A stretch of DNA of 64,000 nucleotides from a virus: IMG/VR virus record IMGVR_UViG_3300027734_000039; one strand, given 5' to 3'. Shown piece by piece: positions 2,149-14,930 of this stretch (position 1 is its first letter; each line of letters starts with the position of its first letter). The notes below the pieces were generated by a model that did not search any database, was not told the DNA's origin, and saw only the letters and a list, made by a program, of their open reading frames with translations. Position numbers and translations under genes: made by a program.

Positions 2149-4006
2149 AGTTTAATCCTACCATAGCAGAAACACCTTTATAACCATTGCCGCCATAATC
2201 GCCCCCTAACGATACAAAGGCAGAGGTAGTTTCATTTATTTTCTTATCATACTTTACACGAACTTGACCAACTGTTTTGAAATCTTTAGATTGAGTAACT
2301 CTAGTTTCAACAGAAAAATCTTGGTCAAGTTGATAACGCACACCTGCATATGGACGAACTTCTGTTCTATCTTTCTTTTCAGGGAGAGTAGATAACAAAG
2401 GAGAACCAAATTCTTTTGATGAATATATATCGCTATAGTTTAACGTCGCGCCGAATAAAGGTCTAAACCCGAAATAGTCTTTTCCGGAATAAACAGTAAT
2501 ATCCGTATATGCGGTATTTTGACTTACCTTATTTGAATTGCTTAAATTGAAACCAGTGAGGTTTACTGCTGAGTTATAATTTGTATTACTATAACCAACA
2601 GAAGTTTTTACCAAAGCAAGATCTTGTTTAGTTAACCAATAAGCAGTTCCGGAACCAGTTTTGAATAATGAATTTGAATTATTATATACATAAGATTCTA
2701 CTTCTTCATAAGCACCAGCAATACCATAAGTGTTTTTACCGATAGTATTTTGATAACCGAAGCTTAAACCAGATGATCTTAAACCACCATTTATTCTAGT
2801 AAATCCTAAAATTGGCTGTGCCCACTGACCGTCTTTGATAGATAAAGCGTCGACGATAAATGGATTAAAGTTTCTATAATCTAAAGAATTTTTCAAAGCA
2901 ACAGCTGAAGCAGTTTTGTTTGCTGAAGTTGAATCACCAAACTGATAAGCAGTTCCAGTTTGTGTTGTTGTAGTTGCAGGATTGTTTGGATCAGCAACGG
3001 TTGTGGTTGTATTGTTACTCCATGTCTGAATCACCTTCGGTGTTGTAACCGTTGTGACTGTATATGGCGTAGCAGTTACAGGAGTTGTTGTCTGAGTTAC
3101 ATTAAACTTAGATCCTGTATTCGTGCTAGATGTTGTAACCAACGTTGGTGCTGCTGTTGGTGTCCCTAAAGTCGTTGTCGAAGTAACAGTTGGTGTTGTT
3201 GGTGTTGTGCTTACAACTGTTGGGTTCGATGGAGCTGGTGTAGGATCAACCGTTGGCATGTTTGGATTGTTAGGAGCAACAGCACCGAACGTCTGACCGT
3301 TCTTAGTTACAGATCCAAGACCATCGTTCACATACAGAACTGGCGAAAGAGCAGTATCACCCTGATTGAATGAAGCGAAACCAAGACGATACGTTCCAGC
3401 ATCTACAGTTTCGTAGTTGACGATCTGCCAACCAGTTGAACCGTATGAACCAGTCGAATAGTTACCTGTTCCTGGATTTGTAGCACCGAGCAGAATGTAT
3501 TGTGTAAGAACGTTATTGATCTTACCAAGAGCAGCTGCGTTGCCTGTGTTCACGAATGTTGTGATAGAACCGTCATTGAACGGAACGTAGTCAGTCGATG
3601 TGTAAACCCAATACATCGAGAACTTAGTAGCAGCTGCAAGTGGGAAATCTTTATAGACCCATGCTGCGTTGGTAATGTTACCACCACCTTGTGGATTTTG
3701 TGCAGCGATTTCACCAGAAAGAGCAGATACAGAAGCGGCACTCATACCGAGCGCATTTGTCATATTGGTATATGTTGCTGTTGGATTAGTTGGTGTGAGA
3801 CCAACCATCGTCGATCCCGTGTATGGGCTGATTGCCCATGCATTCATGCCAGCTTGAATTGTTTGTGTGCCAGTCTTTGTAGCTGTCCCAGCAGGACCAT
3901 TTGTCCATCCACTGGCGCTTAGTGAGTAATCTTGTGAAAACGCTACCGATGTAAATGCAAATAGGGCGATTGTCGCCGCTAGAATCTTTTTCATTTTTGG
4001 CTCCAT
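2138..4006 (-). CDS. Autotransporter-like outer-membrane protein
   Basis: Signal peptide (MKKILAATIALFAFTSVAFS), beta-rich N-domain, Pro/Thr-rich linker, C-terminal amphipathic beta-strands ending VGLNFKF. Confidence 0.7.
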   Translation of the reverse strand: MEPKMKKILAATIALFAFTSVAFSQDYSLSASGWTNGPAGTATKTGTQTIQAGMNAWAISPYTGSTMVGLTPTNPTATYTNMTNALGMSAASVSALSGEIAAQNPQGGGNITNAAWVYKDFPLAAATKFSMYWVYTSTDYVPFNDGSITTFVNTGNAAALGKINNVLTQYILLGATNPGTGNYSTGSYGSTGWQIVNYETVDAGTYRLGFASFNQGDTALSPVLYVNDGLGSVTKNGQTFGAVAPNNPNMPTVDPTPAPSNPTVVSTTPTTPTVTSTTTLGTPTAAPTLVTTSSTNTGSKFNVTQTTTPVTATPYTVTTVTTPKVIQTWSNNTTTTVADPNNPATTTTQTGTAYQFGDSTSANKTASAVALKNSLDYRNFNPFIVDALSIKDGQWAQPILGFTRINGGLRSSGLSFGYQNTIGKNTYGIAGAYEEVESYVYNNSNSLFKTGSGTAYWLTKQDLALVKTSVGYSNTNYNSAVNLTGFNLSNSNKVSQNTAYTDITVYSGKDYFGFRPLFGATLNYSDIYSSKEFGSPLLSTLPEKKDRTEVRPYAGVRYQLDQDFSVETRVTQSKDFKTVGQVRVKYDKKINETTSAFVSLGGDYGGNGYKGVSAMVGLNFKF

Positions 4007-4379: not shown

Positions 4380-4733
4380 ATGGGTGATATTGCTCAATTA
4401 ATTTCAAAGTATGGGTTTCCTATTGTCGCTGCGGCAGGTATGGGTTATATGATTTTTTATGTGTGGACTTGGGCTACACAGGAAGTTAAGCCAGTACTCT
4501 CAGAGGCTAATAAAGTTTTGATTGCGCTTATTGATCGTATTCGCATGTTAGATAATGACCTTATTCGTTTAAATCAAAAAGTTAATATTGTTCTTCAACT
4601 ACGTAAAATGGAACATGACGAGTTAACAAAGCAAGCTCATCAGTTTTTGATCGAAGAAAATAACAGGTCCGTATCTGTACCAGAGCAAAAGACCGAGGAA
4701 AAGCCAGACGAATCCAATAAGAAAGTAAAGTAA
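4380..4733 (+). CDS. Small membrane protein (one TM plus coiled coil)
   Basis: KYGFPIVAA TM segment and LIDRIRMLDNDLIRL, similar to LDNRVKTMNHDVIRI in previous gene. Confidence 0.75.
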   Translation: MGDIAQLISKYGFPIVAAAGMGYMIFYVWTWATQEVKPVLSEANKVLIALIDRIRMLDNDLIRLNQKVNIVLQLRKMEHDELTKQAHQFLIEENNRSVSVPEQKTEEKPDESNKKVK

Positions 4734-14483: not shown

Positions 14484-14558
14484 TGGTTGGCACAGGTGGT
14501 TACGATCCACCGACCCCTGTCTTATCAGGACAGTGCTCTACCGCTGAGCTATGCGCCA
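14484..14558 (-). tRNA. tRNA-Ile(GAT)
   Basis: Loop CTGATAA, T-loop ATCGTAA, CCA. Confidence 0.88.
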
Positions 14559-14613
14559 ATATTAAAAAAGTCCCCATCCTAGATCGCCAGTTATTCCCCT
14601 GCTAGGGCGATTC

Positions 14614-14662
14614 CACGCGACACCGAAGTGTTTCATGCCATTACAGGCAATCATCAGGCGTA
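14614..14662 (-). ncRNA. Hammerhead ribozyme (type I topology)
   Basis: UACGC-CUGAUGA-U-UGCC(UGUAAU)GGCA-U-GAAA-CAC(UUCG)GUG-UC^GCGUG. Confidence 0.85.
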
Positions 14663-14722
14663 TAAGTGCAGGGCTAGATGTCCACAAGTTCGATGGGGTG
14701 GTGGACCACACGCCTCTTATAA

Positions 14723-14861
14723 TTGTCTCTTCAAGGATGCACCAGCTATCTAACTTCTGTCACCACCGTCGATTACAGCTGATTATACGGACTGAGAAGG
14801 CTACCTCTGCGTTAAATATTCTGCAGACGCTTCGGGCTCTGATGCACCCATGAAGAGACAA
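14723..14861 (-). ncRNA. Rod-like structured RNA candidate (~140 nt)
   Basis: 22-bp closing helix with one U.U mismatch and two G.U pairs that are valid only on the minus strand. Confidence 0.6.
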
Positions 14862-14904
14862 CCGAAGTTGCCTCAACAAGTTTCTAACAATTTCAAACAA
14901 CAAT

Positions 14905-14930
14905 AAAAAAGGCGGGATTTTAGTCCCGCC
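14905..14930 (-). terminator. Rho-independent terminator
   Basis: GGCGGGA-CTAAAA-TCCCGCC-TTTTTT downstream of HTH gene. Confidence 0.8.

Follow-up and report, generated by a model that had tools for sequence, protein, structure and literature searches.

A predicted hammerhead ribozyme as an optional insert in a conserved double-pseudoknot RNA of phages

Results and discussion

A hammerhead motif within a larger conserved RNA

On the minus strand of a 64,000-nucleotide stretch of viral DNA (IMG/VR record IMGVR_UViG_3300027734_000039; hereafter the window), a non-coding RNA element lies at positions 14713-14572, ahead of an array of tRNA genes; all element coordinates below refer to this strand. 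With slightly better than even confidence, we interpret this element as a putative hammerhead ribozyme inserted in a loop of a conserved double-pseudoknot scaffold, which would brace the ribozyme rather than switch it on and off. The predicted scaffold is a two-module RNA of about 95 nucleotides (nt), composed of four helices that had been noticed before, a further CUAG/CUAG helix and one long-range pair, and it is carried by many unrelated phages, with or without the ribozyme. The original prediction, made from the letters of the window, had placed the hammerhead in a larger and apparently switchable fold, in which an upstream strand would block the ribozyme and so time the release of tRNAs or termination. 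We could locate every complementarity that it listed on the minus strand of the window. The larger fold proved correct, and the four extra helices are real, conserved and covarying in homologues. The comparison does not bear out the switch.

The purpose of bacterial and phage hammerheads is a long-standing open question. Here, the hammerhead appears as an optional insert in a widespread and strongly conserved RNA that is absent from Rfam 15 and that is located in tRNA arrays or at the head of packaging operons in phages of many bacterial phyla. The natural matched pairs with and without ribozyme make it possible to test the effect of the cut and the binding partners or activity of the scaffold, and carriers such as the Arthrobacter phages Constance and Karkharias and the Mycobacterium abscessus prophages are culturable. 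The scaffold also poses a structural puzzle, since it contains two look-alike modules whose first bases are identical rather than complementary.

Homologues of the element and covariation

Megablast of the element against phage records returned no match. Sensitive blastn against phage records aligned positions 14687-14578 at 72-73% identity over about 105-110 nt with Arthrobacter phages Karkharias and Constance and with Mycobacterium abscessus prophages, and aligned the hammerhead part alone at 85% with Klebsiella and Escherichia phages. In the mycobacterial phage phiGD24-3, the match sits between tRNA-Ser and tRNA-Trp. A four-way alignment already contained compensatory changes in every helix.

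We collected further members with sequence patterns. The pattern GGGGAATAACTGNNNNNCTAGG returned 89 loci in IMG/VR and 23 in GTDB genomes, the latter being contigs of metagenome-assembled genomes and prophages distributed over many phyla, with Asticcacaulis endophyticus and Marinibaculum pumilum among them. A second pattern, independent of the first and drawn from the opposite half of the element (ACATCTNGCCCNNC...CGTGGAG), returned 45 loci and retrieved variants of the first motif (GAAUAAAU, CUAGA). After parsing and removal of duplicates, the loci from the pattern scans yielded 95 distinct members. The first pattern used on IMG/VR, CTGAYGA...GAAACAC...GTGT, was discarded as unspecific, having matched a recurring protein-coding stretch and ordinary hammerheads.

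The window aligned end to end with 55 other members in a MAFFT alignment that was blind to structure. Across these 56 members, 98.0% of the cells were paired and 21 of the 32 pairs showed compensatory changes. The covariation score was 0.588, compared to 0.159 in shuffled alignments (none of 500 reached the observed value) and at most 0.10 when the partners were slid against each other. We built a covariance model (R1) from this alignment and used it to align all 95 members, which gave 98.8% of paired cells and compensatory changes in 29 of 41 pairs. Helices H1 and Pb and the long-range pair described below were absent from the R1 model, yet they are paired in 99-100% of the cells. The window scores 147.7 bits with R1, of whose seed it was part.

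The Klebsiella phage vB_KoxiM_BaqKoxi carries a diverged cassette (locus L003, 1455-1625), also found in Escherichia phages PD205 and VTCCBPA_322. Its hammerhead shows 85% identity, and the flanking helices differ in sequence while keeping the order of the double pseudoknot; R1 matches the hammerhead part alone. This cassette lies in an unannotated gap about 700 nt past a tRNA cluster. In complete E. coli genomes, we found no blastn match for either the window element or the Klebsiella-phage variant.

Architecture of the scaffold

From 5' to 3', the first half of the scaffold consists of the motif NCGUG(U)G, a hairpin (H1) whose loop pairs in helix Pc, the conserved stretch ACAUCUNG that pairs in helix Pd, the 5' strand of helix Pa and the insertion point. 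The second half consists of the motif NCGUGGA, the 5' strand of helix Pb, a 3-nt linker, the 3' strand of Pa, the loop GAAUAAMU and the 3' strand of Pb. The domain ends with CUAGG, the 3' strand of Pc and an A. H1 is crossed with Pc and Pa with Pb, which results in two pseudoknots. The window has both pseudoknots, Pd, two copies of NCGUGG, the stretches ACAUCUNG, GAAUAAMU and CUAGG, and the long-range pair.

In the window, the 5' copy of the motif is GCGUGUG (14713-14707), which together with the preceding AG (14715-14714) forms the 5' arm of the anti-helix discussed below. H1 (GUCCAC/GUGGAC, 14706-14701 with 14685-14680) is paired in 99-100% of the cells, and five of its six pairs are supported by compensatory changes. 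Its loop provides the 5' strand of Pc (CCCCAU/AUGGGG, 14698-14693 with 14577-14572; 97.5% paired, compensatory changes in six of six pairs), which closes the whole domain and is followed by a conserved A (14571; A in 82 of the 95 members). This helix had been proposed as a 7-base-pair CCCCAUC/GAUGGGG; the additional C-G pair is present in the window, and our scores refer to the 6-base-pair form. Pd joins the CUAG within the conserved ACAUCUAG to a second CUAG (14677-14674 with 14582-14579) and is 97.4% paired, with a one-sided change between G-U and A-U at its third pair. Pa (CCCUGC/GCAGGG, 14673-14668 with 14602-14597) encloses the hammerhead and is paired in all members, with compensatory changes in three pairs.

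The second half begins with the internal copy of the motif (GCGUGGA, 14618-14612), whose first four bases also serve as the 3' strand of hammerhead stem I. The second pseudoknot extends over 14611-14583, where Pb (AUCGCC/GGCGAU, 14611-14606 with 14588-14583; 99.8-100% paired, compensatory changes in five of six pairs) crosses Pa and spans the linker CUA (14605-14603, between the 5' strand of Pb and the 3' strand of Pa), the 3' strand of Pa and the conserved loop GAAUAACU (14596-14589, between the 3' strands of Pa and Pb). The long-range Watson-Crick pair is formed by G14709 and C14590. These are base 5 of the 5' motif and base 7 of the GAAUAAMU loop, and they covary perfectly, being G-C in 86 members and U-A in nine with no exception. 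The 5' motif therefore has a role in the native fold.

Many of the unpaired scaffold bases are conserved as well. The variable base of ACAUCUNG (base 5 of AUCUNG, either G or A) and the central base of the linker covary (mutual information 0.46 bits), which suggests a base triple on helix Pd. Both halves are laid out alike: the motif is followed by a 6-base-pair stem, 3 nt, a 6-nt strand pairing outside the stem and a loop of 7-8 nt, and each half then ends with the 3' strand of the stem followed by AUCUGG or CCUAGG. The two modules may derive from an internal duplication, a likeness that we read off the consensus by eye.

The hammerhead insert

The insert (14661-14619) is a hammerhead of type I topology by every sequence criterion, although curated models do not score it. 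Stem I (ACGC/GCGU, 14661-14658 with 14618-14615) shows compensatory changes in two of its four pairs, stem II (14649-14646 with 14639-14636) in four of four and stem III (14631-14628 with 14623-14620) in three of four. All three stems covary and are 97-99.6% paired. The core CUGAUGA (14657-14651) is invariant except for N7, the columns of the GAA from G12 to A14 (14634-14632) are invariant, and the A15.1-U16.1 pair (14631 and 14620) is A-U in all 70 members that carry the ribozyme. Among these 70, the core reads CUGAUGA in 36, CUGACGA in 27, CUGAAGA in five, and CUGAGGA and UUGAUAA in one each. The UUGAUAA member shows a paired change to U3 and A8, matching the covariation from C3-G8 to U3-A8 reported in natural hammerheads (Perreault et al. 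2011, PMC3088659). The base at the cleavage site, N17, is C in 51 members, A in 17, U in two and never G. In the window it is C17 at 14619, and the predicted cut lies on its 3' side, between 14619 and 14618.

Stem I is very short, measuring 3-5 base pairs in 56 of the 70 members, and its closing pair is G-C in 37 and C-G in 30. In the window, it contributes just -0.8 kcal/mol to the nested fold. Since stem I is so short, the activity of the ribozyme plausibly depends on the larger fold. In six members (L124, L135, L142, L175, L256 and L274), the insert measures 82-95 nt in total, compared to 38-58 nt in the other ribozyme-bearing members, and the extra sequence apparently lies in stem III.

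The ribozyme is optional

Of the 95 members, 70 have the hammerhead at the insertion point of the scaffold, and the remaining 25 have the scaffold without ribozyme, with 1-29 nt at the same point. On a tree built from the scaffold alone, the presence or absence of the ribozyme requires 18 changes, at least three of which are forced by well-supported branches. One relative without ribozyme, found on a contig of sequencing run X1 (recorded as wastewater metagenome), belongs to the window's own subclade.

Because the scaffold survives without the ribozyme and would often be excised between tRNAs, it must have a function of its own. In tRNA arrays, the element starts as close as 1 nt after one tRNA and ends 3-6 nt before the next, and tRNA processing would presumably excise the scaffold as a discrete RNA. 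As part of the interpretation that we favour, and with the same confidence of slightly more than one half, the ribozyme would be an optional, self-nicking accessory of the scaffold.

Genomic context

All 205 tRNAs found within 3 kilobases (kb) of any member lie on the strand of the element. Members without ribozyme have a tRNA within this distance more frequently than those with it (13 of 25 and 16 of 70, respectively, p = 0.011, Fisher test). Where tRNAs are absent, the first downstream genes encode an HNH endonuclease, the small and large terminase subunits, the portal and head proteins, and these sites are the head of the packaging operon. With tRNAs near such a minority of the hammerhead-bearing members, the timing of tRNA release does not extend to the family as a role of the ribozyme.

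In the window, a C and a run of six U (14570-14564, U at 14569-14564) lie in the spacer that separates the element from tRNA-Ile. This tRNA starts at 14558, 14 nt past the last helix of the scaffold, and is followed by 15 more tRNAs in the same orientation. The U-run had been taken as a possible sign of termination. A run of at least five U follows the element in only 10 of the 95 members, a terminator scan called nothing at 14570, and the helix that precedes the U-run is a long-range one. The site thus differs from an intrinsic terminator, with its G+C-rich hairpin directly before a conserved U-tract. The scan did call a Rho-independent-type terminator upstream, at 14934-14907 on the minus strand, and about 190 nt of non-coding sequence separate it from the element. 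Blastn matched the non-coding stretch 14723-14905, upstream of the element, to none of the approximately 270 loci that we fetched, and hence this stretch does not travel with the element. Two sequencing runs contain 4% of the sampled words of the window, solely as Logan contigs, whose matches were mainly to the tRNAs and to related elements.

In roughly half of the family, the sequences on either side of the element form a variable closing helix, in which cognate strands pair better than non-cognate ones (-12.5 and -8.6 kcal/mol, respectively, p = 1.5e-7). The corresponding pairing in the window amounts to merely -3.7 kcal/mol, which is negligible. In three IMG/VR contigs (L138, L148 and L184), direct repeats of about 21 nt (AAUUCGCCCGAUGGGCAACGA, with a small GCCC/GGGC hairpin) flank the element and replace the inverted closing helix. 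In another viral contig of 266 kb (L159), a large tRNA array with a ribozyme-less scaffold at 4416-4523 also includes a full-length tmRNA gene (3523-3882, 116 bits).

The anti-helix and the proposed switch

The proposed switch relies on an anti-helix between AGGCGUGUG (14715-14707) and UAUACGCCU (14664-14656). We confirmed that these strands form nine base pairs, two of them G-U, and that UAUACGCCU includes the 5' half of stem I (14661-14658) as well as C3 and U4 of the core. According to this explanation, the upstream strand captures these bases and later refolding frees the hammerhead, which would time the cleavage at the head of the tRNA array. In the window itself, the energies favour the capture. 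The anti-helix is much stronger than stem I (-11.7 and -3.4 kcal/mol, respectively, nearest-neighbour energies), and the nested fold containing it reaches -33.0 kcal/mol, compared to -27.6 kcal/mol for H1, Pa and the hammerhead, pseudoknot energies not included. Its best duplex (-14.2 kcal/mol) is moderately unusual when compared to mononucleotide shuffles (-8.8 +/- 2.2 kcal/mol), about 2% of which reach it. The upstream arm is also transcribed before the competing 3' strand, and the closest relatives of the window (L131, L133 and L147) retain 7-9 base pairs with a G/C swap at the first base that preserves the pairing.

These longer versions are however confined to the window's subclade. Of the covariation that had been expected in homologues, the four extra helices show it, whereas only the central four base pairs of the anti-helix (NCGY with RCGN') persist across the family. 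The flanking pairs fail; one of them forms in 12 of 56 members, a second one in 18 of 40. The persistence of the central pairs is explained by the match between the two NCGUGG motifs: since both share their first base, the strand that pairs with the internal motif can also pair with the 5' motif. The first bases (14713 and 14618 in the window) follow a rule of identity and not of complementarity. They are the same in 92 of all 95 members, in 67 of the 70 with ribozyme and in all 25 without it, where the shared base is C in 12, U in seven and G in six. The rule is therefore independent of the ribozyme. The two first bases share 1.32 bits of mutual information, against at most 0.3 for every other column. 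This identity may reflect a symmetric homo-pair on a pseudo-dyad axis, or a single dimeric partner that recognizes both modules.

When the closing base is held fixed, the 5' motif and the stem I strand of the same member pair no better than those of different members (-7.04 and -7.02 kcal/mol, respectively, p = 0.91, Wilcoxon test), and the comparison gives no support for selection on the anti-helix. Furthermore, G14709, which lies in the same strand, is committed to the conserved long-range pair with C14590, and no trigger for a switch is known. In a switch, the alternative helix would be conserved and would covary independently, which is not what we observe. The extra helices are likewise no alternatives to the hammerhead: all scaffold helices and the long-range pair can form alongside its active form, with CCCUGC/GCAGGG closing the far end of stem I. 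We therefore regard the switch as unlikely. As judged from this comparison, the 9-base-pair anti-helix extends a 4-nt likeness between the motifs in a lineage-specific manner and is not a conserved switch, although such a strong duplex could slow folding kinetically in the window's lineage.

A proposed braced hammerhead and the points that weigh against it

In the mechanism that we favour, the whole element would be transcribed and the scaffold would fold, after which the short stem I would be held in place. The ribozyme would then cleave the linkage from C14619 to G14618 to give 2',3'-cyclic phosphate and 5'-OH ends, and the cut would separate the upstream transcript from the tRNA precursor. 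The two pieces would stay joined by the 16 base pairs of Pa, Pd and Pc as a nicked, knotted domain.

Several observations weigh against this interpretation, besides the energies of the anti-helix in the window. A scaffold that solely served the ribozyme should not occur alone, so that clamping would be at most a secondary use of it. The scaffold tree is poorly resolved. Many members have a mismatch, U-U or A-A, at the start of stem II, and none of the curated Rfam hammerhead models matched, either at the gathering score or at E <= 10 on 551 nt. The members were fetched by means of conserved motifs, and the invariance of these motifs is thus partly by construction. Finally, cleavage, its site and its dependence on the scaffold all enter the mechanism as predictions.

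Other explanations

The abundance of conserved unpaired bases in the scaffold, together with its long-range pairs, is also compatible with a natural allosteric hammerhead. The scaffold would sense a small ligand or a protein, perhaps dimeric or symmetric, and this partner would toggle a ribozyme whose stem I is too short. The two modules, parallel in layout and with the same motif and first base, fit such a sensor, as does the very short stem I, and hosts that span many phyla would point to a universal partner. However, neither a ligand nor a protein partner nor an expression platform is known, the ribozyme-less members tightly flanked by tRNAs have nothing obvious to regulate, and the similarity between the modules was judged by eye. 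We consider this explanation improbable. The same low probability applies to a broader version of it, in which the scaffold represents a novel sensor or catalytic RNA class, the ribozyme-bearing members are natural allosteric hammerheads that have a deliberately weak stem I and fire only when the pseudo-symmetric scaffold is folded or bound, and the 9-base-pair anti-helix of the window's lineage is an extra kinetic lock.

The scaffold might itself be a catalytic RNA, either a new self-cleaving class or one with another activity, with the hammerhead as a mere neighbour. Bacterial and phage self-cleaving ribozymes are enriched near each other (PMC10085705), the scaffold combines a compact, doubly pseudoknotted fold with unpaired bases that are invariant, and in several arrays the element begins 1-2 nt past the 3' end of a tRNA. 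The distance to the upstream tRNA nevertheless ranges from -1 to 31 nt, which indicates that release of the tRNA does not require cleavage at the 5' end of the scaffold itself. Since the scaffold also matches no ribozyme family in Rfam and its order of strands is unlike that of HDV-like ribozymes, we find this explanation very improbable.

That the complementarities arose by chance and the hammerhead motif is a non-functional look-alike, as the lack of an Rfam match and a minimum free energy that, for the entire stretch, does not improve on shuffled sequences (z = +0.55) might suggest, is refuted by the 95 homologues, the compensatory changes in every helix and the invariant catalytic core. 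This z-score carries no weight, because it is expected for a pseudoknotted RNA, and the case from the single window sequence alone would be weak.

Comparison with known families

Over the window element, Rfam 15 returned no family other than tRNA, either at the gathering score or at E <= 10, and the scaffold was unmatched in the window and in 18 member loci. We found no description of the scaffold in the openly accessible literature that we covered.

Like type I hammerheads (RF00163), the insert has a CUGANGA...GAAA core, an A15.1-U16.1 pair, a cleavage base other than G and covarying stems II and III; loops close stems II and III, and the strand enters and leaves through stem I. It differs from them in that stem I has only 3-5 base pairs and is closed distally by a scaffold helix, so that the predicted cut would leave a nicked RNA and not two free RNAs. 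Further differences are the frequent mismatch at the start of stem II and the lack of any scoring Rfam hammerhead model. The pseudoknot-stabilized hammerheads (PMC3088659) share the intergenic setting in phages or prophages, the U3-A8 covariation and a tertiary brace, which in the window is predicted. Their pseudoknot, however, joins the ribozyme's own loops, while in the present family the knots are part of a distinct RNA of about 95 nt, which is also found without ribozyme. The theta (HDV-like) ribozymes described beside tRNA genes of phages (Kienbeck et al. 2024, PMC10879173) are also small self-cleaving ribozymes with a nested pseudoknot architecture that are co-transcribed with these tRNAs. 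They belong to a different ribozyme class with another strand order; our element has no HDV-type match in Rfam, and most of its hammerhead-bearing members are not next to tRNAs.

Phage T4 species 1 and 2 (rnaC and rnaD) are small stable RNAs annotated in the tRNA cluster, on the strand of the tRNA array, and as with the scaffold their function is not known. We rejected them as homologues, since the family model, run with filters off, reached no more than 3.7 bits over the tRNA region of T4. Nor did the comparison support a tRNA-like acceptor end with CCA formed by H1 and Pc. CCA stands one base past Pc in five of the 95 members, three of which are near-identical, and the window has ACUUUU after Pc, although its own tRNAs encode CCA.

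Sensor domains are found in tandem with ribozymes in nature, as in glmS and in the c-di-GMP-II riboswitch with a group I ribozyme. The element resembles these tandems in that a structured domain is physically coupled to a ribozyme and the folding of one could govern the other. It differs in the mode of coupling, which is insertion into the loop of a pseudoknot, and in that the scaffold also occurs alone and has no known ligand.

The discarded first pattern also retrieved three IMG/VR contigs (L040, L105 and L120) in which ordinary hammerheads occur as tandems of two or three, and every copy closely precedes a Shine-Dalgarno-like sequence with a start codon. These arrays resemble the multi-hammerhead arrangements described in prophages by Perreault et al. 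2011.

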